A stretch of 64,000 nt of DNA from NCBI GenBank assembly GCA_963708025.1, contig CAVPSB010000010.1, positions 32,001 to 96,000 of the forward strand, read 5' to 3'. Each line of letters opens with the position of its first letter. The first letter of the stretch is position 1. The notes under the pieces are model-generated. The model did not search any database. It was not told the origin of the DNA and was given only the letters and a program-made list of their open reading frames with translations. The translations under genes were made by a program, and so were the position numbers. The DNA comes from an uncultured Candidatus Rokubacteria bacterium. GTDB lineage: Bacteria; Methylomirabilota; Methylomirabilia; Rokubacteriales; DASRDR01. This document shows, in pieces, positions 13,830 to 29,117 of this stretch.

Positions 13830-14273
13830 CTAGCGCTCCAGGGGATAGCCGCGGCTGGCCCAGCCGGGGAAGCCGTCCTCCAGGCCCTGGATCTCCTCCA
13901 TGCCGAGGCCGGCCAGGTAGCGATAGGCCGCTTCCAGCTCGTCCTTGGGGCAGGCGCAGTAGAGGATGATGCGGCCGGGGGGCAGATACCCCGCGCGCCG
14001 GCGGAGCTCGCGGATCGGGATCGAGCGGGCACCCGGCAAGCGCCCCTGGCGGAAGTCGTCGGCGGGGCGGAGATCGATCAGCATTGGCCGGGCGCCGCGG
14101 TCGAGGAGCGCCTTGAGATCCGGCGCCGAGATGACCGGCATGGGCCCCGCCGGGGACCCGTGGCCGGCCGCCGCCGGCCCGGCCAGGGCGGCCACCAGGG
14201 AAGCCAGCATCCAGCAGATCCGAAGCCGGCCGGCGCGGGGCCGCGGGCAACGCTCGGAGATCGAAGCGGCCAT
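13830..14273 (-). CDS. Exported rhodanese-like protein (CAC motif)
   Basis: IDLRP..FRQGRLPGARSIP...ILYCACP...LEDGFPGW, with a hydrophobic leader. Start uncertain (14273 or 14210). Confidence 0.85.
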   Translation of the reverse strand: MAASISERCPRPRAGRLRICWMLASLVAALAGPAAAGHGSPAGPMPVISAPDLKALLDRGARPMLIDLRPADDFRQGRLPGARSIPIRELRRRAGYLPPGRIILYCACPKDELEAAYRYLAGLGMEEIQGLEDGFPGWASRGYPLER

Positions 14274-14374
14274 CTCCTCGAAGGATAGCAGGAGCCGCGC
14301 GGAGGTGTCAGCCAGTCGGCTTCTCGCGACCGGCTGGCTCTGGCCACGCGGCCGGCCCCCCACCCCGGAGATCT

Positions 14375-14520
14375 TCAGCGCGGGTCGAAGCGGAGCAGGC
14401 GGCTGCTGTTCACGATCACGACGACGGTGCCGACGTTGCCCCACCGGAGCACGGCGCCGGTGAGCGCCAGCACGCCGGCCGCGCTGCCGGGGAAGACGGT
14501 CCGCCACGCCCGGGCGGGGC
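14375..14520 (-). pseudogene. C-terminal remnant of a heavy-metal P1B-type ATPase
   Basis: Reads ..GVLALTGAVLRWGNVGTVVVIVNSSRLLRFDPR*, resembling the last TM helix of P1B ATPases. The rest of the gene is absent. Confidence 0.5.
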
Positions 14521-14526
14521 CGGTCG

Positions 14527-15363
14527 TCACGACGTCGCTCCCGCGCGGCGGAGCCGGCGGGCCGCGCCTCCCCAGGCCAGCACGGTCACGCCGAACGCGC
14601 AGGCGACCGTGGCGCCGGTCGGGAGGTCGAGGGCGGCCGAGGCCACGATGCCGATGAGGCTGACCAGCGTGCCGAAGGCCCAGCCGACCCAGAGGCGGGT
14701 GCCGATCGGTCCTCCGAACGCGATCCCGGCCAGGGCCGGGACGATGAGGTACGAGAAGACGAGGAGCACGCCGGCGATGCGGACGGAACTGGTCACGACG
14801 AGGCCGAACGAGGCGTAGAAGAGGAAGTCCCAGAGGCGGACGCGCCAGCCATCACGATAGGCAGTGTCCGGATCGGTCGAGATGAGGAAGAACGGCTTCC
14901 GGCAGAGCCAGTGGAAGAGTCCGACGACCGCGTAGAGCGTCGCGACCCGCCCCACCTCGGGACCGCTGACCGCCAGCAGGCTGCCGACCAGCATCCCGCG
15001 GAGATGCTCGGCGCCATGCGGCGTCCGGTCGGCGACGAGAACGGCGGCTGCCGCCGACACCGCATAGACCACGCCGATCATCGCTTCCTGGGACACGCGA
15101 CGCTCCCGGCTGCGCGTCAGGGCGAGGACCAGCGCTCCGAGCACCGTGGCACCGAGGCCGAAGAGGTAGGACACGCCGGACTCCAGCTCGAAGCCGGCCA
15201 GGAGGGCGGCAGCCCCGCCGAGGGCGGCGATCTGAGCCAGCGCGATGTCCACGAACACGACCTCCCGGGCGATGACGTGGATGCCCAGGTAGGCGTGGAT
15301 CCCGGTGAGCACCAGGCACATGAGGAACGGCGCCCACAGGAGGGCGGTCAGCTCGCCGACCAT
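14527..15363 (-). CDS. Metal ABC transporter permease (ZnuB/MntB, ABC-3 family)
   Basis: Motifs GIHVIAREVVFVDIALAQIAALG, EAMIG, GVLLVFSYLIVPA and DLPTGA. Multiple TM segments. Confidence 0.9.
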   Translation of the reverse strand: MVGELTALLWAPFLMCLVLTGIHAYLGIHVIAREVVFVDIALAQIAALGGAAALLAGFELESGVSYLFGLGATVLGALVLALTRSRERRVSQEAMIGVVYAVSAAAAVLVADRTPHGAEHLRGMLVGSLLAVSGPEVGRVATLYAVVGLFHWLCRKPFFLISTDPDTAYRDGWRVRLWDFLFYASFGLVVTSSVRIAGVLLVFSYLIVPALAGIAFGGPIGTRLWVGWAFGTLVSLIGIVASAALDLPTGATVACAFGVTVLAWGGAARRLRRAGATS

Positions 15364-15565
15364 GCCGCCAGCTACCGCCAAGCCGGGGCCAGCGTCGTCA
15401 CGCTGGAGCCGATCCACGCCCGGTCGGTGTCGGTGCCCCTCGGGGCGCCGGGGCGGTCGTGCCGGGGCGAGAGGAATCCACGCATGCAGAGCCCTCCGCA
15501 AGGGGCGGGTGAGGGGCCGTCCGGAACCGGCGGTCCCGGGCGGTGGACGTCAGCGGATCAGGGGT

Positions 15566-15856
15566 TCAGGCGGTGGGAGGGGCGCGGGAGCCGGACGGGA
15601 GCGCCGGACGGGTGGCCCGGGCAGGATTGCCGGGGGCCAGCGAGATCGGCCGCGCGTGGAGCGATACGCCTGCGTCCGGGGCGTCGATGATGATCGCCCC
15701 TGCGGGGGCCATCACCATGCGCTCGAGCGAGCACTGCTCGTTGTAGATACCGGCCGCCGCGCCCCCGTGCTCGTGGACGACGGGAAGCTCGGCCCCGACC
15801 CGCACCAGGGCCAGGACGACGACCAGCCACGGAACTACGCGAGAAGTGGATCGCAT
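15566..15856 (-). CDS. Putative metal-sensing ribosome-arrest leader peptide (DUF2946/CruR-like; HEH...C...RAPP)
   Basis: Signal-like N-terminus, HEH, a single Cys, a 48-aa Ala/Pro linker and terminal SRAPPTA. Lies upstream of the metal ABC permease. Confidence 0.7.
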   Translation of the reverse strand: MRSTSRVVPWLVVVLALVRVGAELPVVHEHGGAAAGIYNEQCSLERMVMAPAGAIIIDAPDAGVSLHARPISLAPGNPARATRPALPSGSRAPPTA

Positions 15857-15910
15857 GCGAAACGATTTGAAATCTACGCGCCTGCCGGGGTCGAAGTCAA
15901 ACAGTTTCGC
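15857..15910 (-). promoter_or_regulatory. Sigma70-like promoter flanked by a 14-bp inverted repeat (candidate metalloregulator operator)
   Basis: TTGACT-N18-TAGATT on the minus strand. Arms GCGAAACGATTTGA (15857-15870) and TCAAACAGTTTCGC (15897-15910) match at 12/14 positions. Confidence 0.6.
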
Positions 15911-15911
15911 G

Positions 15912-16403
15912 TTACACGAGATCCTTGCCGGTCGTCGCCATGGTGAGCCGGCCGTGCTTCACCCCGCGCGTCGCGATGAGGCGATCGGCGAGGTCGTGGA
16001 TCGTCTGGGCCCGGCCCCGGACGACCAGCACTTCCAGGCAGTGGTCATGGTCCAGGTGCACGTGGAGCGACGAGACGATCTCACTGTAGTGGTCGTGCTG
16101 GGCGGCCGTGAGCCGGCCGGGCAGAAGCCGGGCGTGGTGATCGTAGACGAGCGTGATCGTGGCGACCGTCTCGGCGTTCCCGGCCTTCCATTCGGCCTCC
16201 ACGAGCCCCTGACGCACGAGGTCGCGAATCGCCTCCGAGCGGTTCGGGTAGGCCCGGCGTGTCACCCACGCGTCCAGGCGGCCGAGGAGTCGCCGGTCCA
16301 TCGCGACGCCGAACCGACGGAGCCCGGCCCCCCCATCGTCGCGCGGCGGCGAGCGCCTCCTGGCGGGTCCGGGCCCGGCGTCGGGCGAGCGCCGGCTCTT
16401 CAC
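15912..16403 (-). CDS. nikR: Nickel-responsive regulator NikR
   Basis: RHH domain RFGVAMD..NRSEAIRDL. Metal-binding domain YDHH...HVHLDHDHCLE. Confidence 0.93.
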   Translation of the reverse strand: MKSRRSPDAGPGPARRRSPPRDDGGAGLRRFGVAMDRRLLGRLDAWVTRRAYPNRSEAIRDLVRQGLVEAEWKAGNAETVATITLVYDHHARLLPGRLTAAQHDHYSEIVSSLHVHLDHDHCLEVLVVRGRAQTIHDLADRLIATRGVKHGRLTMATTGKDLV

Positions 16404-16434
16404 CGCGCGCGCCTTCTATCCCGGCTCCCGGGGG

Positions 16435-16899
16435 TCATGGCCGGGCGGCCTCACGGCCCAGGAAGGCGGCGTAGTCGCGCTCGTGGTTCGGCACGTAGCC
16501 CGACACCGCCCCCTCCGTGGGATGGCCCTGCTCGATCCAGCCGGGGATTCCCTCGTCCAGGATCCGGAGGTTCCGGTACCCCTTCGCGTAGAGCGCCTCG
16601 TAGGCCAGACTGGCCAACCGGTGGGGGCACGCTCAGTAGAGGACGACCGGGACGTTGCGCGGCAGGATCACGTCGCGCTCCCTGATCGTGGAGAGCGGGA
16701 ACGACTCCGCCCCCTTGATGTGCCGCGCCCGGTACTCCTCGCGCGTTCGCACGTCGACGAGCACGACCGGCGCTCCCCGGGCCTGGAGGCGGATCACCTC
16801 GGCTACCTTGATGAAGGTGCGGGTGTCCGACTGGCCCTGCGCCGTTCCGGCCGCGAGCCCCAGCGTGGCGACCAGGAGCGGGATCAGCCTCGTGCGCAT
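16435..16899 (-). CDS. Exported rhodanese-like probable selenoprotein (in-frame UGA at codon 89, U-A-C)
   Basis: Two track ORFs are in one frame across the TGA at 16633-16635: VVLY-U-ACPHRLA. This aligns with IILY-C-ACP of the paralogue. GAGGAGG RBS; SECIS-like hairpin follows the UGA. Confidence 0.8.
16591..16635 (-). promoter_or_regulatory. Candidate bacterial SECIS element
   Basis: UGA GCGUGCCCCCACCGGUU GGCCA-GUC-UGGCC UACGAGGCGCUC. The apical loop starts with G, 22 nt after the UGA. Confidence 0.65.
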
Positions 16900-17027
16900 C
16901 GAGTTCCTCCTCGTTTCAGTTGGTAACCTCCCGCCCCCCCCCAGCCCCCCTCCCCCACCCGTTGGACGGCCTTCGGCCTGTGGCGGGGGGAGGGGGGAGC
17001 CGGAGGACCCCATTCCTTCACACGCTC

Positions 17028-17984
17028 TCAGTGGCGGTGGCTGGTGGGCGCACCGCCCCACTCGAAGGACGCCTGCCGGGACCGGGCGAATCGCCCCGCC
17101 ACCGCCGGCATGAGGCGCATCGTGGGCGTCCCGATGGTGACCGTGACCCGCTCCGTGCCGTCGGGCAGGGTCACGTCCGCCCCGTAGTGAAAGCCCTGGT
17201 GGCCCAGCATCGGGACGAGCCGCGTCCGCTTCGGGGCCTGCTTCCCGGCGTGGATGGTGGCGGCGACCGGCAGGTAGGGGATGGGCTCGCCCGACTGGAC
17301 ATCGGCGATGAACACCATGAGGTGTCCTGGCCGCCGGGCCCCGGCGCTCTGGCCGGCGGCCCTGGGTGCGTTCGGGTGGCCGGTCGCGTCGTCGTACTCC
17401 ACCCGCACCCGGACGTCGCCGAGGACCTGCTCGCGAACCGGCGGCCCCGCGTGGTCGTGCCCCTGGCCGTCTCCCGCGCCGAGGCTCTTGAGGAACGCCA
17501 CCAGGTCGATCAGCTCGCTGACCGTCAGGCTCTCCCGGTAGTCGGGCATGATCGAGAGCCCGTCGGGCCCGGCATACCCGGGGCCTTCGAGGATGACGGC
17601 GTTGGGGTTGAGGATCGACTCCGCGAAGTATTCGGCGGGGTGATGGCCGCCCATCGCGGTCAGCTCGGGGCCCACCTCGTCCGACGGCGTCGGCGCCTCC
17701 GGGAAGCCCGCCCCCTTGACGGGGTGGCACTTGTAGCACTCGAGGTTCGCGAACACGTCACGCCCCGCCTTCGCGTCGCCCGGGGGGAACGCGAAGCGCC
17801 AGCCCGGCGGCACTCCGCCGTGGCGGTGCAGCACATCCATCCCGATCCGGGCGGGAGCCGTGGGGTGCTCGTGAGGCGGGATCCCCGGCGGGTGAGCGTG
17901 GCCCTCCGGCTGCGCGGCGGACCACCGCAGGGTGGCCACCACTACCAGCGCCAGTCCCGTGGCGGTGAGGTGCCGTGCCGTCAT
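17028..17984 (-). CDS. Exported cytochrome c fused to a P19/Tp34-like metal-binding domain
   Basis: CYKCH heme motif, ESILNPNA and MPDY. The C-terminal HL.VFIAD...IPYLPV...LVPM...FHYGADV resembles P19/FetP. His-rich linkers. Confidence 0.75.
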   Translation of the reverse strand: MTARHLTATGLALVVVATLRWSAAQPEGHAHPPGIPPHEHPTAPARIGMDVLHRHGGVPPGWRFAFPPGDAKAGRDVFANLECYKCHPVKGAGFPEAPTPSDEVGPELTAMGGHHPAEYFAESILNPNAVILEGPGYAGPDGLSIMPDYRESLTVSELIDLVAFLKSLGAGDGQGHDHAGPPVREQVLGDVRVRVEYDDATGHPNAPRAAGQSAGARRPGHLMVFIADVQSGEPIPYLPVAATIHAGKQAPKRTRLVPMLGHQGFHYGADVTLPDGTERVTVTIGTPTMRLMPAVAGRFARSRQASFEWGGAPTSHRH

Positions 17985-18625
17985 GACGCCGTCCTCCCTG
18001 CCCGATCGGTCGTGAGTCGCGCGTTCCGCGATCGGGTGCGCCACAACAGCCACGCGGCCGCCGAGCCCAGGAGCGCCGCGCCGGCCCCCACCATCGCCGC
18101 GCCCACGCCCCAGGACGCCGCCGCCTCCACCTCCAGCGGGAAGTCGGCGCTCCCGGAGCCCTCCGGGCCCGAGACGTGGACGGTCACCGTCCAGCGCCCC
18201 GGACTCGGCAGCCTGAGATCGGCCACGTGGCTGATCCCGCCGGGATCCCGGCCCCGATCCGCCGTGACCGAGACCGGGGCGTCCGCGGCGCCGGCTCGCC
18301 CGGCGCTGACGCGCACGACCGCGTCGGGGACCGGGCGAAAGTTGCCCGGCCGCATCACGGTGACCGTGAGCTGACACGCGTCGGTCCGCGGCCGCTTGGG
18401 CTGGGTCCACGCCATGAGGACGTAGGGCCCGGCCCGGTCGTTGAGCTGGAGGACCCCGCTGTGGTCTGCCGAGGCCGGGCCGGAAGCGCCCACCAGGGCC
18501 CCGGCTGCCAGCGCGACCAGCAGGACGCCGCGTGCCAGCGCCGGGAAAGAAGTGCGGGCGCCTCCCCTTCCCATCGCGCGGCCTCCGCGGGTCGGGGGGG
18601 CTCGCGCCAGCGGGCCCGCCTTCAT
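17981..18625 (-). CDS. Exported YtkA/FixH-like Ig-fold protein with C-terminal TM anchor
   Basis: Signal peptide, GPYVL.AW..P, LPSPGRWTVTVHVSGPEG, C-terminal hydrophobic helix. Confidence 0.6.
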   Translation of the reverse strand: MKAGPLARAPPTRGGRAMGRGGARTSFPALARGVLLVALAAGALVGASGPASADHSGVLQLNDRAGPYVLMAWTQPKRPRTDACQLTVTVMRPGNFRPVPDAVVRVSAGRAGAADAPVSVTADRGRDPGGISHVADLRLPSPGRWTVTVHVSGPEGSGSADFPLEVEAAASWGVGAAMVGAGAALLGSAAAWLLWRTRSRNARLTTDRAGRTAS

Positions 18626-19014
18626 GACGCCGGTCGGAGCCGGAAGCCGAAGTCGCTCTCGACGACGTGGCCGTCAACGGAGAGGACGCGGAACTTGACC
18701 GTGTAAGCGCCGGGCGCCAGCGGCCGCAAGCCGACGGAGAGCCGCTTGGGATCGTCCGGCCCCACCGCGGCGTTCCCGGCGTCAACCCGCGCGCCGCCGG
18801 CGTCCCACACCGAGATGGTGGCGAACTGCGGCTCCAGCCGCTCGCTGAACCAGAGCTGGACCCGGTCGGGGGCCTTGACGAGCACCGCCCGCCGGGCGGG
18901 GATCGACTTGACGAGCATCGCGTGGGTCCAGCCCGAGACCGGAACGAGCGCCAGCGCCAGCCAGACCAGGAACCTCACCGCGACGACGAGGCGGGCAGGG
19001 AACATCCTGCTCAT
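18622..19014 (-). CDS. copC: CopC-family copper-binding protein
   Basis: Mature N-terminus HAMLVKSIP, then L.FSE.LE and VLSVDGH. Confidence 0.9.
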   Translation of the reverse strand: MSRMFPARLVVAVRFLVWLALALVPVSGWTHAMLVKSIPARRAVLVKAPDRVQLWFSERLEPQFATISVWDAGGARVDAGNAAVGPDDPKRLSVGLRPLAPGAYTVKFRVLSVDGHVVESDFGFRLRPAS

Positions 19015-19048
19015 CGTACGCCCATCAGCGGCCCCCGGGGGGGCCGGG

Positions 19049-20038
19049 TCACGGGCGGAGGGCCATCCCGTGCGGCGCCTTGCCGACGGCGATGCTCTTC
19101 ACCTGCTTGTGGGTGCCGAGATCGATGACGGTGACGGCGTCGGCCCACCGGTTGGTGACGAAGGCGTAGCGCCCGCTCGGCTCCATCGTCACCAGGTCGG
19201 GGTATGCCGGCTGGGGGATGCTCGCCACGACCCGGTCGTCGGCGGTGGACACCACGACGATCTTGTTGGCCCGCCGGAGCGTGGCGTAGAGGAAGCGGCC
19301 GTCCAGGGTGAGGACCGCGTCGTGGACGATCCCCGGCAGCGGGATGGTCTTCACCGCCGCGTTCGTCGTCGTGTCCACCTTGACCAGCTTCTTCTCCTCG
19401 CCGGCGGCCGCGTAGAGCCAGCGCTCGTCGGGGGTGAGGGCCAGCCCCATCGCGTCGCCCCCGGTCCAGACCGTGTGGGTGATCCGGCGCGTCGCCGTGT
19501 CGATCGCGGCGAGGTTGCCGGCCGTCTCGCCGGAGACGTAGAAGGTCCGGCCGTTCCGGGTGAAGATTCCGTGGGCCGGCCACGTGGAGACCTCGATCCG
19601 CGCGTCCACGCGCGCGGCCGCGAGGTCGTAGACGATCACCTCGTCGTTGCTGGTCTCGCTGCTCCAGTCCAGGACGTACAGGTACCGGCCGTCCGGTGAG
19701 AACGCGAGGTTGTACGGGTTGCCGCCGATCTTGACCCGCCGCGAGAGCTTCCCGGTCTCCGCGTCGACGACGCCGAGGTCGTGGCTCTTGTCGTAGACGA
19801 CCCAGGCGGTCTTGCCGTCCGGGTGGAACGCGACGCGGTTGGGCTTGCCCGGGCCGAGCGGGATCGTGTGGACCACCTCGAAGGTGGTGGTGTCGATGAC
19901 CGAGATCGACCCGGACTTGGTGTTCGTGACGTAGAGCGTGGCCGCCGGCGCCGGCCGGGGGTCGGCCAGGGCGGCCAGGCCGAGCAGCAGGGCGAGGCCT
20001 AGCCGGCCGGGGCCTCGCCAGGGACGGTGTGCATTCAT
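19049..20038 (-). CDS. YVTN/YncE beta-propeller protein
   Basis: LYVTN..SGSISVID plus repeats such as PDGRYLYV, FVTN and VGKAPHGMA. Signal peptide. Confidence 0.9.
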   Translation of the reverse strand: MNAHRPWRGPGRLGLALLLGLAALADPRPAPAATLYVTNTKSGSISVIDTTTFEVVHTIPLGPGKPNRVAFHPDGKTAWVVYDKSHDLGVVDAETGKLSRRVKIGGNPYNLAFSPDGRYLYVLDWSSETSNDEVIVYDLAAARVDARIEVSTWPAHGIFTRNGRTFYVSGETAGNLAAIDTATRRITHTVWTGGDAMGLALTPDERWLYAAAGEEKKLVKVDTTTNAAVKTIPLPGIVHDAVLTLDGRFLYATLRRANKIVVVSTADDRVVASIPQPAYPDLVTMEPSGRYAFVTNRWADAVTVIDLGTHKQVKSIAVGKAPHGMALRP

Positions 20039-20047
20039 GACCCTATC

Positions 20048-20623
20048 CTACCGCCGAGCGGGCGGAAACTCCGCCTCGCTTCGTGACTCGGGGCAGCCGA
20101 AGCTCCCGACCAGGCCCTTCCGGGTGACGGCGCCGGCGAGCTTCACCGGGCTGCGGTCCTCGGCGCCCGCGACGTGCCCGGCCGGGTTGCAGCTGAAGGT
20201 CAGGTCGACCGGCACGGTGTTGACCGTGCCGTGGATGCGGAAGCTGTAGGTGGTGGCGACCGTCGGGAAGAAGAACGCCTCGTAGTGCCCCGGGGATCGG
20301 AAGGCCGGATAGAAGTCGAAGGTCCGGGCGGCCGGGCCGGCCTTGACCTCGACCTTCAGGCTCTTCTCGAGCCCCTCCACCGGCTTGATGTTCGGCGCCC
20401 GCGAGTCCATGGGGTTGGCCGGGTCGGGGACCCAGACGAAGAGGTCCACGCCGCTCTTGTCCCCGGTGAAGACCGGCTCGTTCAGGAATCCGACCACGAA
20501 GAGGTAGTCGGCCGTCCCGATCTGGAAGAGCTGGCGCTGGTGAGCGCCGGCGATCGGCGAGACGCAGAGCGACAGCACGGCGGTGAGGGTGACGAGAGCC
20601 AGCAGTCGGCGGAGAGACATCAT
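20048..20623 (-). CDS. Exported hypothetical protein with N-terminal His (YcnI/CopC-cluster associated)
   Basis: Signal peptide AGA|HQRQ, then VVGFLNEP and PGHYEAFFFPT. Confidence 0.7.
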   Translation of the reverse strand: MMSLRRLLALVTLTAVLSLCVSPIAGAHQRQLFQIGTADYLFVVGFLNEPVFTGDKSGVDLFVWVPDPANPMDSRAPNIKPVEGLEKSLKVEVKAGPAARTFDFYPAFRSPGHYEAFFFPTVATTYSFRIHGTVNTVPVDLTFSCNPAGHVAGAEDRSPVKLAGAVTRKGLVGSFGCPESRSEAEFPPARR

Positions 20624-22504
20624 GAGACCTCCTGTCCGGCGTTCCGGCCGGAGCCCGGGTCGAGGGGTTCGAGGACGACCGGCGCGCCGGACAGGGCGCG
20701 CCGGCTGCGGCGGAGCAGGCCCGCGGTGAGCGTGACGATGGCCACCGCGGCGATCGCCATCGGCAGGTCCAGCGGCGCCGGTGGGCCGGCCGCCAGGCTG
20801 CGGTGGTGCCCGGCCGGGACGGCGCCCGCCAGGCGAAGCGTGAAGCGGTCGTTGAGGTCATAGGCCCCGTCCCGCTGGACGACCACGCGGCCGCTCCAGG
20901 TGCCCTCCATGCCGAGGAGCGCCTCCATGGTGACGAACGAGCCGGCCGAGGCGCGGCTCAGGGTCAGGACGAGGGGGCCGCCGTGGGCGTGCGGCGGCGT
21001 GAGCTGGACCAGCGCGGCGGTGGCGTCGGCGAGCGGCCGCCCCGCGCGGTCGGTCACGGCGACCCGGATGGTGTTGCGGCCGGGACTCAGGGAGGCGACC
21101 TCCACGGAGACGCGCGCATCGTCGACCTCCCGCTCGTGACGGAAGGCGGCGACCGGCGCCGGGCCGTGGGACGGCGAGGTGGTTCCCAGGAGGGCCGCCA
21201 GCAGCAACGCCAGGACGCCCAGCCCCGCTTCCAGCCGGAGCGTCCGGCGGAACCGTCGGGCGACCCGCTCGCCGCGCGCGCTCGCGCGGCCGGCGGCCTC
21301 GACGGCGCGGGGGTGCACCCGGAACTGGTGGTAGCCACCCAGGCCCAGCATGGCGGCCATGACCAGGAGCTTCGCGAGGAGCCAGCGACCGTATGCCGTC
21401 CCGATCAGGTCACCGGCCGACGCCAGGTGGAGCCGGGCGAGATAGAGACCGCTCAGGCCGAGACTGCCGACGGCGACGGTGGCCAGGACGGAAAAGGCGG
21501 GGATCGCCTGCACCAGCGCCGCCGCCGGGGCCACAGGGCGGAAGGAGCGCCAGAACAGCGAGGCGAAGTAGGCGAGGCCGGCAACCCACAGCGCCACCCC
21601 GAGCCGGTGGAGGAGCTCGGCGCCCAGGGCCAGGCCGCGCCAGCTCGTGGCCGCCGCGCCGTGACTGAGGAGTCCACCCGCCAGGATGGCGAGCAGGACG
21701 CACCCGATGCCGACATACCGGGGCCAGCGCCGGTGCCGGGCGCCGCGGGCCTGGAAGGCGACCACCGCGGCCAGCAGGGCGGCCAAGAGGAGCTCGAGCG
21801 TGGCCAGCCGGCCCACCGCGGTGGGCAGGAGGGCGATCGCGCCGGCGAGCCAGCCGGAACCGGCGCCAACCTGACCGGCCCGGGCGCCGAACGCCGCCGC
21901 CTCGCCGGCCGCCATCGCGCCGATCGATGCCGACAGGAGCCCGGATGGGGCTTCCGCCGCCGCCGGACCGAAGACCAGGGGGCCGATGAGCGCGCCGAGC
22001 AGGGCGAGCGCCCCGAGCATGGCGACCCAGCGCCCGATGGCGACGAGGGGCGGGGTGGCCGCGGCCAGATCCCGGCCCGGTGGCGGGGCGGGAGCCACCG
22101 TGCCGACGGCGAAGCCGTGCGCTCCCTCGGTCACGTGCCCGTCGTCGGCGGACAGGACCCGCCAGGCGACGGTGTAGGGGCCGGGCTCGAGCTCCGGGAC
22201 GGCCAGGCGGTAGAGCCACGGATCAGCCGGGTCGACGCGCGGAGGACCGGTGTCGACCGGCCGCCCGCGCGTGTTGAACGACCTGCAGCGAGCTGGCGCG
22301 CGGCTCCACGCGCTCGCTGAAGCGGATGGTGATCTCCCGTGGACTCTCGCCGACGACGGCGTTGGCCTCCGGCACCATGGCGACCGGCACGGCGTGAGCA
22401 AAGGCCAGGCGGGGCGCGGCCAGGAGGAGCGCCACCGCCAGGGCTGACGTGCTCGCGCGCACGCCGGACGTGAACCGGCGACCACGAGCCACTCTGCCGC
22501 GCAC
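20620..22504 (-). CDS. CopC-CopD-YtkA fusion copper uptake protein (YcnJ/CutJ-like; frameshift near 22283)
   Basis: AFA|HAVP..FSERVE in the first frame. VLSADDGH, SHGAA, LHRL...W, YGRWLLAK and a YtkA-like C-terminus in the second frame. AAGGAGG RBS before the GTG at 22504. Confidence 0.85.
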
Positions 22505-22629
22505 TCGACGCCTCCTTTTTCGGCCGGGGGGAGCCCGCCGAAGAGGGATCTCCGGCCATCCCGGGATCGATGACGACCCGCACCCGTCCCGGGGGAAGCC
22601 GCGGGACGACGAGCAGGCGCCGGAAGGGG

Positions 22630-23196
22630 CTAGACGGAGCGGGCGGGAGGCGCGCGTCCCTGGTCGGGACGGAGCGCCGGAGCGGCCAGGAGGGGGTCGG
22701 CGAGCATGACGAGCAACGGACCCACGTCAGCGGGCGCGTCGGCGGTGATCTCGGCGGCCGGGGCGTCGCCGTGGACGTGCTGCGCCACGGACAGCACCTG
22801 GCACTGCGCCGCGCCTCGCGGATCGTCGATGTGGTGGACGGAGTGGATCGTGCTCTCGGCGACGAACACGGTCAGCATGGGGATCAGGGCCAGCGTCACG
22901 ACCCGGGGCCACCGGCGGGCGATGGCGCCGGCGAGGGCGAGTCCGGCCACGATCGCCAGCCAGGGTGCGAGCGACGTGGAGGGGCCGGCGATCAGGACCG
23001 GTGGCTCGGATGGGCCCGAGACGATCGCCGGCGCCGGCCCCGGCTCGGGGTCGTTCACCTCGAGGGCCGGCGGCGACACCGGGGAGAGCGCGGCCCGGCG
23101 GGAATGGCCCTCCGCCGGCTGGAAGCCCACCAGCAGCACCGCCATCCCGCCGAGCAGGACGAGCCCGGTCAGACGCGAAGCGCGGAGGCCCTTCAT
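22630..23196 (-). CDS. Putative metal-sensing ribosome-arrest leader protein (HxVHH-x9-C...RAPP), multi-TM
   Basis: Signal peptide, two TM segments, AESTIHSVHH-x9-CQVLSVAQH, 48 aa from Cys to RAPP. Directly upstream of the copCD fusion. Confidence 0.75.
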   Translation of the reverse strand: MKGLRASRLTGLVLLGGMAVLLVGFQPAEGHSRRAALSPVSPPALEVNDPEPGPAPAIVSGPSEPPVLIAGPSTSLAPWLAIVAGLALAGAIARRWPRVVTLALIPMLTVFVAESTIHSVHHIDDPRGAAQCQVLSVAQHVHGDAPAAEITADAPADVGPLLVMLADPLLAAPALRPDQGRAPPARSV

Positions 23197-23203
23197 GGCG
23201 CAG

Positions 23204-23232
23204 AGCCTAACGGTGTGGCGCCGCCTTGTCAA
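23204..23232 (-). promoter_or_regulatory. Sigma70-like promoter giving a probably leaderless transcript
   Basis: TTGACA-N17-TAGGCT, then 7 nt to the ATG at 23196. No SD. Confidence 0.65.
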
Positions 23233-23235
23233 ACT

Positions 23236-23595
23236 CTAGTCGCACTTCTTGAAGAGGACGACCCACAGCTTGACCGGCCGGTCGCCCTCGTTGCGCGCGT
23301 CGTGCGGCGTGAGGGGAGGAAGGAGCCGGGCGGCCCCGGGCCGCAGCACCTCCCGGCCGGCGTCCGTCACCAGGGTCAGCTCGCCTTCCACCACGATGCC
23401 CAGCTCGGGATCGAGTCCGGTGTGGCGGCCGGACGCCGAGCCCGGGGGGAAGGTGAAGACCGAGACCCGCACCGAGTCGTTGTCCAGGGCGAGTCGCTCC
23501 TCGATCACACCCTGGGAGTCCTGCGCTCTCGCGCCGGAAGCCAGCGTGATCAGCCCGATCAGCGCGCCGAGCACGGCGGCCCACCGGATCGTCAT
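23236..23595 (-). CDS. Exported cupin-domain protein
   Basis: PPGSASGRH...E.GIVVEGEL...PHDARNEG; signal peptide. Confidence 0.85.
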   Translation of the reverse strand: MTIRWAAVLGALIGLITLASGARAQDSQGVIEERLALDNDSVRVSVFTFPPGSASGRHTGLDPELGIVVEGELTLVTDAGREVLRPGAARLLPPLTPHDARNEGDRPVKLWVVLFKKCD

Positions 23596-23975
23596 GGTGA
23601 CCTGTCCTTCCTGATGGCCGTGACGAGGAGGCGACCGTCCTGCGCCTTCAGCGTGAACCGGACGGGATCGCCGGGGGAGAGCCCTTCCAGGAGCTTCTCG
23701 CTGGCGGCGTGGAACGGCATGGTCATGCCCTCCATCAGGTCGGGGATGTCCTCGTGGGTGAGCCAGACGACGCCGGAATCGCGCTGGACGAGGCGGACGA
23801 TGCCGCGAGCCGTCCAGGCGCCGTCAGCGACGCGCGGCTGGGCGGCCTCTCGCACCGTCGCGAGCTCCTGGCGGAGCTGGCGGACCTCGCGGGCCCACCA
23901 GAGATAGCCGCCGCCCAGCCCGAGCACCAGCGCGACATCGACCAGGAGCACCACCTTCCAGAGGCGCATCGTCAT
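23592..23975 (-). CDS. CusF-like copper-binding protein with N-terminal anchor
   Basis: LTHEDIPDLMEGMTMPF...PGDPVRF. Confidence 0.88.
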   Translation of the reverse strand: MTMRLWKVVLLVDVALVLGLGGGYLWWAREVRQLRQELATVREAAQPRVADGAWTARGIVRLVQRDSGVVWLTHEDIPDLMEGMTMPFHAASEKLLEGLSPGDPVRFTLKAQDGRLLVTAIRKDRSP

Positions 23976-24123
23976 TCGGGCCGGGGGGGAGCTCCGCGCT
24001 CCATCCGGATCGCCGCGGCGCCTCGGGCCTGCAGCCCTCGGGACCCCACGTCCTTCCGGTGGCCCGGACCCCCCCTCCGGGTCTTTCGTCGCTGACGCTT
24101 CCGCGGCAATGGCTTCGAGCGTC

Positions 24124-26158
24124 TCAGTGGACGTGCTCGGCGGGGGCGGGGACCCGCTCCGGCTCGCTGGCGAGCCGCTGGACCTGGGCCACGAGGCGCG
24201 CGGGATCGCTCCAGCCGTCGCCCTGGGCCGGGCTCCAGCGAGCCCGGACGTAGCCCTGGCGGTCGATCAGGAACTCCAGGTGATCCGGGGGCGCCTCTTC
24301 CGGCTCGGGACGCAGGCGCCGATAGGCCTCGGCGGCCTCGGCGGCGCCGTCCACCGCGATCGGGAAGGCAACCAGTCGATCGTCGAGCTCGCGATAGACG
24401 TTGCGCCCGGGCCGGACCGGGACGCCGAGGACCTCCGCGCCGGCGCGGAGGATCGGGCCGTAGGCCGTGTTGAGCTGGGACAGACGGGGTCCCGACCCGG
24501 GGAGCGTGAAGATCACGAGGACGACCATCCGCCGGCCGCGGTAGTCCTTCAGGTTGCGGGCCTCCCCGACTCCCCGCGTGAAGGTGAAGTCGGGACCGAC
24601 GAGCCAGGGAATGGGCGCGGTCTCCGGGCCCATCGGGCGGGCCTGCTCGGCGGCGGCGAGGATGCGGATGAGGTTGATCGCGTCCCATCGCTGATCGACG
24701 CTCAGCCGATCGGCAAATCCCCGCATGGCGGAGCCCGGGATCCCGTTCGTGAGCCACCAGAACATGTCGCCGGCGGTGTGATCGGCGGCGTGCCGGGCGG
24801 TGAGGTCGGCCGGGCGCGGGCGGAGCCCGGATGCGGCCGGGCCGTCGCCGTAGCCGTGCTCGCCGTGACACACCGCGCACTGGGCCCGGTAGACATCGCC
24901 GCCGTCGGCGATCGACCCGGCGGTGTAGGTCACGCTCGGGCGCAAGTACGTCGTGGGGTAGGCGTTCGACGGCGAGCGGCGGCAGCGCCACCATGACCCC
25001 CGCCGCGGCCACCGCCGCCCCGGCGCCGAGAACCACGGGCCACCGGCGCAACCTCAAGACGGCGGCGAGCAGCGCGGCGACGAGCCCGAGCAGCGCCACC
25101 TGGCTGCCGATCGCCACCCGGGTCTGGACTCCGGGCAGGCTGCGGGTGGCGTCCCAGGACAGCCGATAGGCGAATGGCCAGGTGATCTGATCGTGCCGGG
25201 CGGGCGTCGTCAGCCCGAGCACGGCCACGACCCCGAGGATCGCCACGCCCAGCCCCAGCTCGGCGACGACCTGGCGACGGAGCCGACCGACCACGCGAGC
25301 GGCCCGCCGACCGCCCGCGACGGCCGCCAGGAGCCGGGGCTTCAGGACGAGGTGATTGAGCGCCGCGATCGCGATCAGTGGCAGCAGCAACCCGACCTTG
25401 AGGAGCAGCCACCGGCCGTAGGCGGTGCCGACCAGGGCCGGGAGTGAGTTGACGTGCTCCCAGCTGTTGAAGAGCCCGGTGGCGACGAGCGCGAGGACGC
25501 TGGCCAGGCCGAGGCGCGAGAAGCGCCGGGTGGCGCCCGCCGCCAGGACCGTCCCCGTCGGCTCCGGCAGGCCCCGGGACCGGTGGAGCAGGACGGCCAG
25601 CGGGCCCAGCGCCCCGAGCCACACGCCGGTGGCCAGGAGGTGCACGGCGTCGACCGCGATCGCGGCACCGGGAAGCTCCTGGGCCGACGCGGCGTGGCCG
25701 GCGGCCCCGATGATCGCCAGACTGAGCGCGCTCAGCCCGCCGGCCTGGAGGCGAAGGGCGAGCCAGTCCCGCACGTCGCGCTGCTCGTCGGCCAGGAAGA
25801 GCAGCCCGCCGGCGAGGACGAGCAGGGCCTGGCGGGCCAGCCACACGGCGCCGTACTGCGTCGTCAGCAGGACCGCCCCCAGGGCCGCCGTCGTGAGGCT
25901 CGCCCTCAGGCCCGCCCCGGTGGCCACCGCGGTCTGGCGCCAGAGATCGAGCAGCGAGCAGGCGATCGTGACCGCCAGAGTCCACCGACCGAGGGCGAGG
26001 AGGCGGCGGTCCAGCCGTTCGAGCAGCGCGATCGCGTCGGCGCCGGCGGCCTTCGCCGCCGGCCGGGCCACGAGCACGAGGAACGCGAACACGCCGACGA
26101 GAAGGCTGGCGCCGAGGAACTGGGCCCAGCGAACGGCGACGGCGAACGCTTCCATCAT
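24124..26158 (-). CDS. CopD - cytochrome c - redoxin-like fusion protein (frameshift near 24965)
   Basis: CopD motifs GHAAS, VHLLATGVWLG and YGRWLLLK. After an extra A: YPTTY..CAVCHG..DLTA.H, then PDFTF...LKDYRG...FLIDRQGYVRARW. Confidence 0.85.
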
Positions 26159-26182
26159 CTTGGCATCTGGGGCAATCTCGAG

Positions 26183-26554
26183 CTATTCGGGCGGCTTCAG
26201 CGTGAACCGGTAGTCACCCTGCGTGCGGTGACCGTCCACGGCGAGCACGCTCCAGGTGACCGTGTAGACGCCAGCGGTGAGGGGCGGCAGCCCGACCTGC
26301 AGTAGCCGCCGGTTCCGGGGGTCCACGTGCGAGTCGCCGCGGTCGATCCGCCGGCCGGCGCCGTCGGTCACCGTCACGGCGCTGAAGGTCGGCTCGAGAT
26401 CCCCATCGAACCAGATGCGGACCTCGGTCGGCGCCGTCCGCACGACGGCGCCGACGCGGGGATCCGAACGCTCCGGAAAGGCATGCGCCCCGACTCCGGT
26501 CACGGTGATCATCAGCAACAGCTCGATGATACTCGTGGCGGTGACGAGGCGCAT
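26183..26554 (-). CDS. copC: CopC-family copper-binding protein
   Basis: HAFPERSDP...WFDGDLEP...VLAVDGH. Confidence 0.92.
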   Translation of the reverse strand: MRLVTATSIIELLLMITVTGVGAHAFPERSDPRVGAVVRTAPTEVRIWFDGDLEPTFSAVTVTDGAGRRIDRGDSHVDPRNRRLLQVGLPPLTAGVYTVTWSVLAVDGHRTQGDYRFTLKPPE

Positions 26555-26563
26555 CCGGAGCTC

Positions 26564-27439
26564 CTACCGGAAGATCGGCCGGAAGACCGTCGGGAACAGG
26601 TCGTCGAGGAAGACGTGGAACAGGGCTCGGACGCCGACGTTCTTGCCGGTCTCACTGTTGATCGGGATCACGGCCTCGATTCCTACCTCGATGTACTTGC
26701 CGGCCCAGATGAGTCCCGGGTTCACGGTCCCGGTCGTCTTGCCGCCGTCGAGCGGGGTGGAGAAGAGCAGCTCGACGATCGGGAAGATCCGGCCCACGGC
26801 GGGCGGGATGCCGACGTCCTTCACGAACTGCTGGAGATACGGGAGGCTGTACTCGATCGCCACGCCGTAGGTGAGCGAGTTGCCCTCCGCGCTCGTGAGC
26901 GGGATCTCGGCGCCGAACACCCCGGTGATGGCCAGCGGCCGGAGGTAGGCCAGGGCGTCGGGCAGGTCGCCCAGGCCCTTGCCGAAGAAGAGGGCGGGCG
27001 AGATGGTGGAGAAGGACTCCGCCCCGCCCGACTTCTGGCCGGCGCCGCCGATCTCCCACGAGAAGCCGAGCGACAGGATGGTCTCGTGAGCGTCGCTCTT
27101 GAAGAAGACGTACTTCGCCGACAGCTCGGGGTTGCCGAACCCGTCGCTGCTCCGCTCCTCCGGATCGCTCGGGTCGAGGAAGCTGTACTCGGCCTCGATC
27201 GACAGCCCGAAGCTCGGGGTGATCGACTTGGAGAACTCGGCGCCGAGGGTCGTCTGCTTGCCCTCCGGACCCTTGATGTGCAGAACGGATGGCAGCGACA
27301 GCTCGTCGGCGACGAACGGATCGTCGATGGTGAGGGTGGCGGGGAAGAAGCGCTGCCCCGCGACGCCGTGGGCCCACGCCGGCCCCGCCGGCGCGGCGAT
27401 GAGCAGAATGGTCCCCAGGACGCACCAGACCCTTCGCAT
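26564..27439 (-). CDS. Putative outer-membrane beta-barrel metal channel with N-terminal His
   Basis: AWA|HGVAGQRFFPATLTIDDP followed by alternating amphipathic beta-strands. This type is commonly found next to copCD. Confidence 0.7.
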   Translation of the reverse strand: MRRVWCVLGTILLIAAPAGPAWAHGVAGQRFFPATLTIDDPFVADELSLPSVLHIKGPEGKQTTLGAEFSKSITPSFGLSIEAEYSFLDPSDPEERSSDGFGNPELSAKYVFFKSDAHETILSLGFSWEIGGAGQKSGGAESFSTISPALFFGKGLGDLPDALAYLRPLAITGVFGAEIPLTSAEGNSLTYGVAIEYSLPYLQQFVKDVGIPPAVGRIFPIVELLFSTPLDGGKTTGTVNPGLIWAGKYIEVGIEAVIPINSETGKNVGVRALFHVFLDDLFPTVFRPIFR

Positions 27440-27514
27440 GCGTCACCTCGCTGAGCCGGCGCGCTCCGTCGCGCGGACGGACGCCGGCCGCCCGGACGTT
27501 GCCCGTCTCGAACC

Positions 27515-27826
27515 CTAGAGCCAGGCGAGGGACGCCGTCGGTGGGCCGCGGCTGGCCGGGCGCCGGGCAGGCGCGAGCGCGGGACGCGAGGCGGGAGCCG
27601 GGTCCGTCCGGCCGGACGTGGACAGCGCGACCACGAAGAGCGCGAGCGGGGCGGTCGCCGCCGGTGTGTGGTCGGCGATGACCAGGACCTCGCACTCCGG
27701 CTCCTGGTCGGTCTCGAAGAGGTGATGGACGAGGTGCGGGGTCGTCTCGGCGATCAGGAACAGGAGCGCGCCGCAGAGGAGCAGGCTCAGCCTGGGGCGA
27801 CATCGGTGAAGCGGCGGTGGTGGCAT
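27515..27826 (-). CDS. Putative metal-sensing ribosome-arrest leader peptide (HxVHH-x9-C...RGPP)
   Basis: TM segment, AETTPHLVHH-x9-CEVLVIADH, 47 aa from Cys to RGPP. Upstream of the beta-barrel/copC operon. Start uncertain. Confidence 0.72.
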   Translation of the reverse strand: MPPPPLHRCRPRLSLLLCGALLFLIAETTPHLVHHLFETDQEPECEVLVIADHTPAATAPLALFVVALSTSGRTDPAPASRPALAPARRPASRGPPTASLAWL

Positions 27827-28099
27827 GGACCCATCCAGGGCGGCTCCATTCTGCCACAGCGGGTCCGGGGGGGCCGGCCTTTCCTCAGGCTCGACGGTTC
27901 CGGAGCGTCGTCCTCGTCCGCCGGCTCGTCGTCGGCCGGGGCAAAGAACGCCCGGCCGGCCATGGCCACGAGCACGAGGACGACGAGCCCGAAGAGCCAC
28001 CACGCGAGGCCGAGTCCCTCCGTCGCCGCCCGCGTGGTGCGCGCGGGCGGGCGTGGCCACGGCCAGGAGGAGGAGCAGGATGGGAACGGTGAGGCTCAT
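27787..28099 (-). CDS. Small exported membrane protein (ARA|HHAGG..., frameshift near 28018)
   Basis: MSLTVPILLLLLAVATPARAHHAGGDGG, then after one extra base LGLAWWLFGLVVLVLVAM and an acidic tail. The 3' end is uncertain. Confidence 0.5.
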
Positions 28100-29117
28100 G
28101 CGAGCGACAGGACGTCGGCCGGCCGCACGGCGCGTCGTGGTGCGGCGGGACTCCATCAGCGCGAGCAGCAGGGCGAAGCTCTGGAGGTTGTCGCCCAGGT
28201 GCGTCTCCGGGACCCGGCCGTTCCGGATGGCCTCGACGAACTGGGCCAGGCCGTGCCCCAGCTCGCCCTCGGGGGCCGGCTCGCCGGGGACCGGCCGCGG
28301 GTCCCCGGCGCCCAGGAGCGAGACCCGCGAGCTTCCGTCCAGGTGGAGGGAGCCCTGCTCGCCGACGAGCGTGATGAGCCCCTCCTGCGGCGTCTCGCGC
28401 CCCCTGGGCGACCATCGTGGCGTCGTAGCCCACCACGAGGCCGCTCTCCATCGTCAGGATGGCGCAGGCCGCCGAGTCGCCGGTGAACCAGCTCCACGCC
28501 GGGCGGAAGCTGACGCCGATCACCTCCCGGGCCTCCTCGCCGGTGAGGTAGCGGATCAGGTCGAGGTGGTGGATCGCGACGTCGAGCAGGAAGGGATCGG
28601 CCATCCGCTCGCGCCACCCCTCGACGGTGGTCCGGCGGATCTGCTGGCGGCACTCGAGCATGAGGTGGCCGACCCGGCCGATCGCCCCGTCGCGGACCGC
28701 GGCGCGGAGCGCCCGCGTGTGGGGCCGCCACCGGAAGTTTTGGCTGACCATCACGACCCGGTCGGGGCGGGCCCGGGCGGCGGCGTGGATGGCCCGGGCC
28801 TCCTCGGCCGCCGTCGCCAGCGGCTTCTCGGTGAGGACGTGGAGGCCGGCGCCGAGGGCGGCGACGATGGCCTCCCGGTGGAGCATCTCCGGCAGCGCGA
28901 CGATGACGGCCTCGGCATTGCTCGCGGCCACGGCCTCCTCCAGGGTCCGGAAGCCGGGAACCCCGGGCAGATCCAGCTCGCGCCGGAGCGGCGGCAGCCC
29001 CTCGGGCGACCGCGAGACGATGCCGGCCACCCGGCAGTCCTGTCGCCCCTTCAGGGTTTCGAGCCACTTCCGGCCGAAGAACCCGGAGCCCCAGACGAGG
29101 ATCGAGAGCGGCACCAT
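28096..29117 (-). CDS. Gfo/Idh/MocA oxidoreductase (frameshifts near 28402 and 28150)
   Basis: Motifs GSGFFG, HVLTEKP, SQNFR and DVAIHHLD. The C-terminus continues in other frames to a TGA overlapping the next ATG. Confidence 0.85.

Follow-up and report, generated by a model that had tools for sequence, protein, structure and literature searches.

Three Leader Reading Frames in a Metal Gene Island

A 64,000-nucleotide (nt) stretch of DNA from an uncultured Candidatus Rokubacteria bacterium (assembly GCA_963708025.1, contig CAVPSB010000010.1, positions 32,001 to 96,000), referred to below as the window, contains an island of metal genes at positions 15,566 to 27,826. Three small open reading frames (ORFs) for exported proteins lie in this island, all on the minus strand: ORF1 (15566-15856), ORF2, the middle leader (22630-23196), and ORF3 (27515-27826). 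Comparison with relatives suggests that the island carries a single type of copper sensor in two copies, along with a zinc-type sensor whose operon has collapsed. The host genome comprises 8.17 Mb with a GC content of 71% and is 99.67% complete by markers.

The three ORFs are present where a sequence-only reading of the window had placed them; a plus-strand reading of the same coordinates yields a nonsense translation and was rejected. ORF1, ORF2, and ORF3 encode 96, 188, and 103 amino acids (aa) and end in RAPP, RAPP, and RGPP, followed by 2, 4, and 7 further residues, respectively. ORF3 shows a positive N terminus, one membrane helix, and the pattern HxxHH-x9-C, with the Arg of RGPP 48 positions after Cys45. 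ORF2 contains the same pattern, followed by RAPP with the Arg 49 positions after Cys132, and this sensor is preceded by a signal peptide, His31 at the predicted mature N terminus, a Pro/Ala linker, and a two-helix hairpin. ORF1 consists of one membrane helix, HxH, YNEQ-C, and RAPP, with the Arg 49 positions after Cys42, a position occupied by His in many relatives. The gaps of 48, 48, and 47 residues between Cys and Arg given by the sequence-only reading (index differences of 49, 49, and 48) are confirmed, as is the motif AE[ST]TxHxVHH-x9-CxVLx[VI]AxH shared by ORF2 and ORF3. Its single Cys per protein does not extend to ORF3, which has three (positions 9, 18, and 45), and a hydrophobic N terminus is an incomplete description of ORF2 with its signal peptide and hairpin.

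On its own, a terminal R[AG]PP is frequent in the host genome, where 481 stop-to-stop segments of ≥60 aa from the six frames carry it; 25 of these also have an upstream His..Cys or CxxC pattern. By eye, 4 of these 25 resemble membrane-anchored genes, three within the 12.3 kb of the island and one on contig C13. Profile searches of the host genome find exactly three copies of the family of ORF2 and ORF3 (family A, see below) and one copy of the family of ORF1 (family B). The fourth leader, of family A (contig C13, 273938-274231, plus strand; L001:7939-8232), has 97 aa and a Cys at -49; no recognizable copper gene lies behind it, and it is probably orphaned.

Two Leader Families Outside DUF2946

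Two families of leaders can be distinguished. Family A, to which ORF2 and ORF3 belong, is built from a helix, HxxHH, nine residues, and Cys, and the residues H, H, H, C, R, P, and P are invariant in 31 sequences. Family B, represented by ORF1, shows a helix, HxH, a GLYNE-like stretch, and then Cys or His. The three independently tuned switches of the sequence-only reading are thus replaced by two types: a copper-linked family present twice and another family, linked to zinc uptake, present once. Of 200 genomes from the phylum, 120 were matched by the family A profile and 101 by that of family B. Because these first profiles contained RAPP, sensor-only profiles were rebuilt from the sensor half, without linker and RAPP; a small bias remains, as all their training sequences had RAPP, and weak matches are included in the locus counts. 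They matched 115 (A) and 98 (B) of the same 200 genomes, mostly at the same places.

Among 50%-identity representatives, family A comprises 1,007 clusters at an E value of ≤0.001. Named leader matches belong to Candidatus Rokubacteria or Methylomirabilota. Single-protein locus scans found one metagenome locus and two genome loci, and one ESM Atlas cluster has Verrucomicrobiota as its commonest taxon, which serves as a lead only. Profile-profile comparison of A with B gives a probability of 80.8% and an E value of 1.3e-5; this match is partly driven by RAPP, and the two are therefore kept as separate families. A common origin is probable, if unproven.

Neither family reaches a Pfam or NCBIfam cutoff. 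PF11162 (DUF2946), the family of the copper leader CruR (Bp2923) of Bordetella pertussis, matches none of the three full ORFs and no place in the host genome above its cutoff; on the family cores it gives weak matches only, in 3 of 31 A and 1 of 21 B sequences (best E value, 0.076), and the core of a window leader scores 13.8 bits, below the cutoff of 23.7. A DUF2946 cluster is among the ESM Atlas matches, at 0.87 and 0.93 (a lead only). CxxC is absent from 150 family A proteins and occurs, anywhere in the protein, in 1 of 118 family B proteins. The comparison with PF11162 thus gives no membership by score or by CxxC; the C-terminal RAPP, the spacing, and an N-in helix are shared. The designation as a non-CxxC variant is apt, as the leaders are similar to the RAPP leaders of the CruR and CutF type with a conserved ligand-to-Arg spacing; judged from their sequences they would work like CruR and CutF, yet they fall outside DUF2946.

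The three ORFs show the sequence features expected of RAPP/RGPP peptides, namely, R[AG]PP near the C terminus of a small localized protein and a same-strand gene behind it. The filters of the survey of CutF-like proteins (<150 aa, PP in the last 15 residues, and an N-terminal signal; PMC9973294) admit the 96- and 103-aa ORFs and exclude the 188-aa ORF by length, as they do other long forms of family A.

Two observations on leader-like ORFs stand apart. An ORF at L143:2796-3161 with HxH..C..RSPP lies between a family A leader and exbB-exbD-tonB and a TonB-dependent receptor (TBDR) gene, a possible third family. At L101 and L104, two or three family B leaders stand in tandem before an outer-membrane gene.

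Fixed Distance Between Ligand and Arginine

The feature common to both families is the distance between the single Cys or His ligand and the Arg of the terminal motif. In the best 150 family A database proteins, the Cys lies 48, 49, or 50 positions before the Arg in 18, 129, and 3 cases, and the motif is RAPP in 145, RGPP in 3, and RSPP in 2. RAPP is present in 118 of the best 120 family B proteins; 116 of these have the ligand at 49 (His in 71 and Cys in 45), and the other 2 have it at 48. Of the 73 proteins with His, 26 have no Cys at all. The sensor-only profiles lead to the same distance: an in-frame R[AGS]PP follows the family A ligand by 47 to 50 positions in 82 of 90 places and the family B ligand by 48 to 50 positions in 85 of 91. 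The family A remainder consists of four places with RAPP codons 142 to 148 nt on in another frame and four with an altered His pattern that still end in RAPP; that of family B includes two frameshifted places, one without the motif, and three misses of the ligand pattern. Six of the seven ligand-pattern misses of both families still end in RAPP, and none of the 90 A and 91 B places has an in-frame motif at any other distance. The profile search proposed by the sequence-only reading thus bears out a conserved spacing, in leaders that stand mostly before copper and TonB genes or zinc-uptake genes.

The origin of this ruler can be narrowed down with the help of one family A member in which an insertion of 8 residues separates the Cys further from the His cluster while the Cys-to-Arg distance stays at 49 (counted by hand), so the fixed distance starts at the Cys ligand, not at the His cluster or the helix. 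CruR contains CxxC at positions 90 to 93 and RAPP at 139 to 142, which places C90 49 positions before R139 (PMC9426467); the single ligand of families A and B therefore stands at the place of the first Cys of CruR. In the stalled CruR complex the P site holds the first Pro (PMC12992588), which would place the ligand 50 to 51 residues from the peptidyl-transferase center. A tree of 62 dereplicated family B proteins (of 119), built with the ligand masked, needs three changes between Cys and His, with the starred branches forcing only one.

The linker preceding the motif also bears on the notion that the leaders are small periplasm-facing metal-binding proteins acting in trans, in which RAPP is incidental. 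Databases do call them as genes, and the long forms have extra conserved parts. Against this stand a linker that is unconserved, disordered, of fixed length, and ends in a motif that is set aside for stalling across bacterial proteomes, as well as the predicted first position of the leaders in the transcript; this explanation is the least probable of those considered.

Copper and Zinc Genes Behind the Leaders

For the survey of targets, 80 regions were chosen (40 for each family, with long contigs favored), and their genes were called with a simple codon model, clustered, and named from Pfam and NCBIfam. Six frameshifted leaders were dropped, leaving 51 of each family. Among the next four genes behind family A leaders, copper genes (CopC, CopD, the c6 protein, SCO, PCuAC, or CusF) are found in 29 cases, TonB, TBDR, BNR, or ExbB genes in 14, others in 8, and zinc uptake genes in none. 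Behind the 51 family B leaders are zinc uptake genes (the c2 outer-membrane protein, ZnuA, and ABC-3 permease) in 43 cases, SPFH and P1B ATPase genes in 5, a TBDR in 1, others in 2, and copper genes in none. Cys and His forms of family B precede the same zinc operon (12 and 31 cases, respectively). ZnuA-family proteins also carry Mn or Fe; zinc is therefore only the likeliest metal for family B.

Some family B leaders may be linked to Fur-type regulation. A Fur-family gene is present in 6 of 40 family B regions, and a box of the form TGCAA-N5-TTGCA, a pattern picked by eye, precedes 10 of 50 leaders compared to 1.1 expected. Half of this box may be a -35 hexamer and ORF1 lacks it at two mismatches, so it is a lead only. 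Cluster c2 (L081:5614-6981 and 33 relatives) contains exported proteins of ∼460 aa with a conserved His-Pro-rich tail and no Pfam or NCBIfam match; it nearly always precedes znuA and is a candidate zinc porin. Behind L073, L075, L079, and L085, family B leaders with RGPP and Cys, two or three HflK-like SPFH genes are found with a heavy-metal P1B ATPase, an unusual pairing.

The nature of these targets bears on the sign of regulation. In Rhodobacter capsulatus CutF, copper increases stalling (bioRxiv 2025.02.05.636593), and by analogy periplasmic metal could anchor the chain, prolong the stall, and turn the downstream genes on. CutF acts in this manner through a periplasmic site and a stem-loop that shields the Shine-Dalgarno (SD) sequence; CopC, CopD, CusF, and P1B ATPases can serve resistance, and RGPP/Cys leaders of family B precede SPFH-P1B ATPase operons in 4 of 6 cases. 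The commonest targets, however, are importers (ZnuA/ABC-3 and TBDRs with TonB/ExbBD) or delivery proteins (SCO and PCuAC), which are expected to be off when metal is plentiful, and RAPP stalls without metal in vitro (PMC12992588), unlike the PPP of CutF, which is sensitive to elongation factor P (EF-P). A metal-on switch is thus considered unlikely.

The partition between copper and zinc also affects the proposal that the leaders are secretion or redox monitors like SecM and ApdP, whose arrest reports Sec pulling or thiol state with the His and Cys residues in a structural role. RAPP/RGPP peptides were indeed first found as Sec/YidC monitors, and all targets here are exported or membrane proteins. 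Contrary to this proposal, Cys and His exchange at the same register, with three changes on the tree, and the ligand set tracks copper versus zinc neighbors. Together with the Cys-free proteins among the His forms, the exchange excludes a disulfide role, and monitoring of this kind is very improbable.

Gene Content of the Island

The neighbor identities of the sequence-only reading are upheld by Pfam and NCBIfam except for the outer-membrane barrel, which has no family match. All genes of the island described here are on the minus strand. Behind ORF3, with a gap of 75 nt, lies this 291-aa exported protein (26564-27439), a member of cluster c6, probably an outer-membrane barrel and the commonest first target of family A in relatives. 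It is followed by CopC (26183-26554; PF04234), a CopD-cytochrome c-AhpC/TSA fusion (24124-26158) that is split into two frames near 24950 and whole in a relative, a CusF-family protein (23592-23975; PF11604), and an exported cupin (23236-23595; PF07883). ORF2 is separated by 125 nt from its first target, a CopC-CopD-YtkA fusion (20620-22504) with the SD sequence AGGAGG and a GTG start, again in two frames (break near 22277). An exported 191-aa protein of cluster c12 without a family match (20048-20623) follows, as it follows CopCD-YtkA in relatives. ORF3 and ORF2 themselves would be the first genes of these copper operons, judged from predicted transcript starts.

Further along the island are a YVTN/YncE beta-propeller (19049-20038; PF21783), a second CopC (18622-19014), a YtkA-like protein (17981-18625; below cutoff, E value of 0.025), a cytochrome c fused to an Iron_transport domain (17028-17984; PF10634), an exported rhodanese (16435-16899; NF041203 below cutoff), and NikR (15912-16361; NF003381 above cutoff). 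Contigs of two related runs join position 20092 to 23238 with 44 other letters between, and the ORF2 block is therefore a 3.1-kb cassette (20093-23237) of promoter, ORF2, CopCD-YtkA, and the 191-aa gene. Where the cassette is absent, YVTN follows the cupin, so the genes from YVTN onward can directly follow the ORF3 operon. Of the targets that had been assigned to ORF2, CopCD-YtkA stands, and YVTN, the rhodanese, and NikR are doubtful on account of this arrangement and the rarity of NikR beside leaders: it adjoins one in only one other genome among the surveyed loci. NikR was rejected as a regulator or standard target.

Behind ORF1 the operon has decayed. A 37-codon deletion scar with a good SD sequence (15372-15485) begins 80 nt behind the leader; in an alignment with relatives its 3' end falls on the end of their znuA, and its start resembles, by inspection only, the start of their outer-membrane gene. 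It is followed by an orphaned ABC-3 (ZnuB-type) permease (14527-15363; PF00950) and a C-terminal remnant of a P1B ATPase (14333-14464; tblastn E value of 1e-5, 50% over residues 611 to 652) of the type that RGPP-type family B leaders precede in relatives. With 12 queries c2 was not found in the host genome, and the queries used for ZnuA detected only a 59-aa piece elsewhere. By comparison with relatives, the natural first targets of ORF1, the c2 outer-membrane protein and znuA, appear to be deleted, leaving the leader before a collapsed zinc operon. The permease that had been named as its target is still behind it, with the first targets deleted and the scar in between.

Several other features of the window deserve mention. 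The rhodanese has an in-frame TGA at 16633-16635 at the position of the catalytic Cys, giving YUAC compared to YCAC in its paralogue (13830-14273), and is a probable selenoprotein; tRNA-Sec and SelA are encoded in the host genome. A Gfo/Idh/MocA gene (27885-29117) has an apparently frameshifted tail, as judged by eye, and this break, like those near 22277 and 24950, reflects assembly error or decay. A G/C-rich repeated element between genes (16930-17020) is matched by many unrelated contigs.

RNA Layer and Promoters

The codons at the stall site suggest a link to translation of the next gene. Among 99 leaders, 35 encode the first Pro of the motif with the rare codon CCT, compared to 34 of 422 first codons of background Pro-Pro pairs and 41 of 549 linker Pro codons, and all 35 start CCTCC. 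An SD sequence is identifiable in 81 loci, and in 52 of them it pairs mainly with the region from -15 to +32 around the first Pro codon. An 11-nt anti-SD of ORF3 (27525-27535, minus strand) lies 9 to 19 nt after the first Pro codon of RGPP, inside the footprint of the stalled ribosome, and is complementary to the ribosome-binding site of the first target (27440-27451, minus strand). This duplex has an energy of -22.9 kcal/mol (z of -4.1 versus 200 shuffles) and a pairing probability of 0.97 to 0.98 in four of six fold windows and of 0.04 to 0.05 in the two longest. Under the stalled footprint, the unpaired probability of the SD rises from 0.02 to 0.46 in short folds and does not rise in long folds. 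The footprint cuts the opening cost by >2 kcal/mol in 7 of the 13 family A loci and 9 of the 24 family B loci considered, compared to 4 and 0 with a displaced footprint. Locus-specific covariation of anti-SD and SD is weak: the pair native to the locus ranks in the best tenth in 8 of 36 A and 8 of 45 B loci.

Upstream of ORF2, the promoter-like site TTGACA-17-TAGGCT (23204-23232, minus strand) ends 7 nt before the ATG, and the mRNA is predicted to be leaderless. Such -35/-10 hexamers ending 6 to 7 nt before the ATG are present in 12 of 51 family A leaders, ORF2 included, compared to 3 of 227 control genes. The site before ORF1, TTGACT-18-TAGATT (15871-15900, minus strand), lies within a 14-bp imperfect inverted repeat (15857-15911) that extends from the nikR stop to the ORF1 ATG and could be an operator pair or a coupling hairpin.

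Topology and Compartment of Sensing

A helix precedes the His cluster in 145 of 150 family A and 117 of 118 family B proteins, by hydropathy and charge only, and its N side is the more positive in 147 of 150 and 117 of 118, respectively. This pattern points to an N-in orientation with the metal site outside. The long forms of family A add a signal peptide and a hairpin that preserves the periplasmic placement of the site, with a His right after the predicted signal cleavage in 87 of 98. CopC-type copper sites have an N-terminal His, which the N terminus of these long forms resembles. The path from the peptidyl-transferase center to the periplasmic exit of SecYEG measures ∼160 Å, or ∼50 extended residues, and in force profiles an arrest peptide is pulled by events in the periplasm (bioRxiv 2021.02.06.430026; PMC7513700). 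Topology and distance thus favor the sensing of periplasmic metal during cotranslational export that the sequence-only reading had put forward.

CruR offers a different model, in which sensing is cytoplasmic, Rho-dependent termination is the main output, and the helix only disposes of the peptide. CruR has the same 49-residue register, and its regulation is independent of the export signal (PMC9426467); the gaps of 75 to 125 nt in the window, a C>G skew of the linker averaging 0.13 to 0.14, and a stall region of 70% pyrimidine would suit Rho. Cytoplasmic sensing is at odds with the near-universal helix and positive-inside pattern and with the cleaved signal peptide, periplasmic His, and hairpin kept by the long forms. 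The anti-SD codon bias points to translational control instead of Rho, and a C>G skew is expected from a Pro/Ala-rich linker. As a whole this model is doubtful, although it ranks first among the alternatives.

Proposed Mechanism

The evidence is best accommodated by metal-gated arrest leaders, in which a default stall opens the next gene and periplasmic metal binding pulls the chain and shuts uptake; a rough probability of 0.55 is assigned to this reading. Anatomy, conservation, spacing, the partition of neighbors, and the deletion behind ORF1 are observed; stalling, metal identity, compartment, direction, and output step are inferred. Each leader would be the first gene of its own transcript and act in cis. 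The N-terminal helix would target the leader to SecYEG in an orientation that exposes the His cluster on the periplasmic side, and the ribosome would halt by default at RAPP or RGPP with the first Pro in the P site. The conserved Cys or His would then be located where the translocon opens into the periplasm, with the His cluster immediately beyond this opening. The stalled ribosome would cover or melt the C/U-rich anti-SD at and after the Pro codons, permitting translation of the next gene, and may shield the mRNA from Rho. Periplasmic metal bound by the His cluster would recruit the Cys or His and pull the chain outward, releasing the arrest, after which the anti-SD would re-pair and the uptake genes would be turned off. 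Family A (HxxHH-C, often with His at +8 and with an N-terminal His in long forms) would read copper; the metal read by family B (HxH-C/H), which often stands under a Fur-family gene, would be zinc or a divalent metal like it. In the window, two family A leaders would gate copper modules, and the family B leader would stand before the decayed zinc operon.

Several points weigh against this reading. The direction in CutF is the opposite, and some targets (CusF and P1B ATPases) could be export genes needing the opposite sign. The TBDR group of family A lacks a direct copper marker if CopC lies outside the first four genes. In the force-profile papers, a LepB domain has folded at ∼70 residues, not 50, and CruR has the same spacing with a dispensable export signal and is modeled as a cytoplasmic sensor, so spacing alone is no proof of periplasmic sensing. 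The surveyed loci are kin from one phylum, selected in favor of long contigs, and their counts therefore overstate independence. Concerning the RNA, none of the three loci of the window passed the 0.4 threshold of the SD-pairing survey, only 7 of the 36 family A duplexes and 10 of the 45 family B duplexes outperform shuffled sequences at a P value of <0.05, the unpaired probability of the ORF2 SD rises modestly under the stalled footprint (0.16 to 0.30), and the ORF1 SD, sequestered in a local hairpin, shows no response to it. AlphaFold models of the leaders are of low confidence (pTM of 0.42 and 0.30) with no visible metal site.

Relation to Known Arrest Peptides

Like CruR, the leaders are small exported proteins, predicted to be encoded by the first genes of metal operons, with a C-terminal RAPP, a long gap behind it, outer-membrane uptake targets, and a Cys 49 residues before the Arg. 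CruR, for which spacing and Rho output (PMC9426467) and arrest (PMC12992588) are defined, differs in its CxxC, which families A and B replace with an HxxHH or HxH cluster, and in its demonstrated Rho control as opposed to the predicted anti-SD; family B precedes zinc uptake, and the hosts are Methylomirabilota instead of Proteobacteria. CutF, which senses in the periplasm (bioRxiv 2025.02.05.636593), likewise is an exported leader with a Pro-rich end, a periplasmic metal site, and an SD-shielding RNA, the latter two predicted here; unlike families A and B, it has CxxxC and PPP; it needs EF-P and is induced by copper. The survey of CutF-like proteins describes 29 clusters with Cys, His, or mixed sites, His-only forms before HupE/UreJ, and members that are not all copper specific (PMC9973294).

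A further related class is that of the RAPP/RGPP small ORFs, which are enriched before metal genes and include stalling non-CxxC members; all seven peptides tested from S. lividans stall, as does CruR (PMC12992588). SLIV_16130 and SLIV_18480 of this class share with the leaders the C-terminal motif, a localization signal, His/Cys residues, and metal genes downstream. The source-data list of that paper includes at least one family A-like protein (MBI1893022.1) and at least 10 rows of RAPP ORFs before a "zinc-regulated TonB-dependent" receptor, among at least 26 matches to "zinc"; two family B words have no match among the rows listed. In the parts covered, the two families, the spacing, the exchange of Cys and His, and the partition of copper and zinc are not described.

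SecM, ApdA, and ApdP share a RAPP-type stall released by pulling and differ in having no metal site and in regulating the translocation machinery. SecM is known for SD control of the next gene. Searches of the literature found no description of families A and B or of a tested zinc-sensing arrest peptide, nothing on Rokubacteria with copper and arrest peptides, and, for zinc leaders, the CutF paper as the sole relevant result; this coverage did not extend to subscription papers and several supplements. Leaders that are His based, lack CxxC, or respond to other metals are already predicted in print (PMC9973294; PMC12992588). The present comparison would add two large families without a name, cleanly divided between copper and zinc, a ligand at 49 in which Cys and His are interchangeable, and the periplasmic-pull model.

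Implications

How metal alters the arrest of CruR/CutF-type leaders, in which compartment, and with which metals are declared open questions in the literature. Families A and B represent a natural experiment on these questions: one ruler is combined with two sets of ligands and two classes of targets, Cys and His interchange at one position, and an insertion reveals which distance is fixed. The pulling model and the sensing of zinc thereby become directly amenable to tests with short peptides. In a wider and more tentative view, nascent chains allocate copper versus zinc throughout the lineage, with the ligand held at the periplasmic lip of SecY and the ligand set alone deciding the metal. If this is true, family B would be the first zinc-sensing arrest peptide shown, free of Cys in its His form; the 49-residue rule would explain the spacing of CruR and imply that CruR senses outside the cytoplasm; and an exchange of sensor heads would reprogram metal specificity. 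With the class already known, the surprise is moderate only. Some 1,000 clusters of "hypothetical proteins" gain an annotation, and two unclassified outer-membrane proteins, c6 and c2, become the likely entry routes of copper and zinc in an abundant uncultured group.

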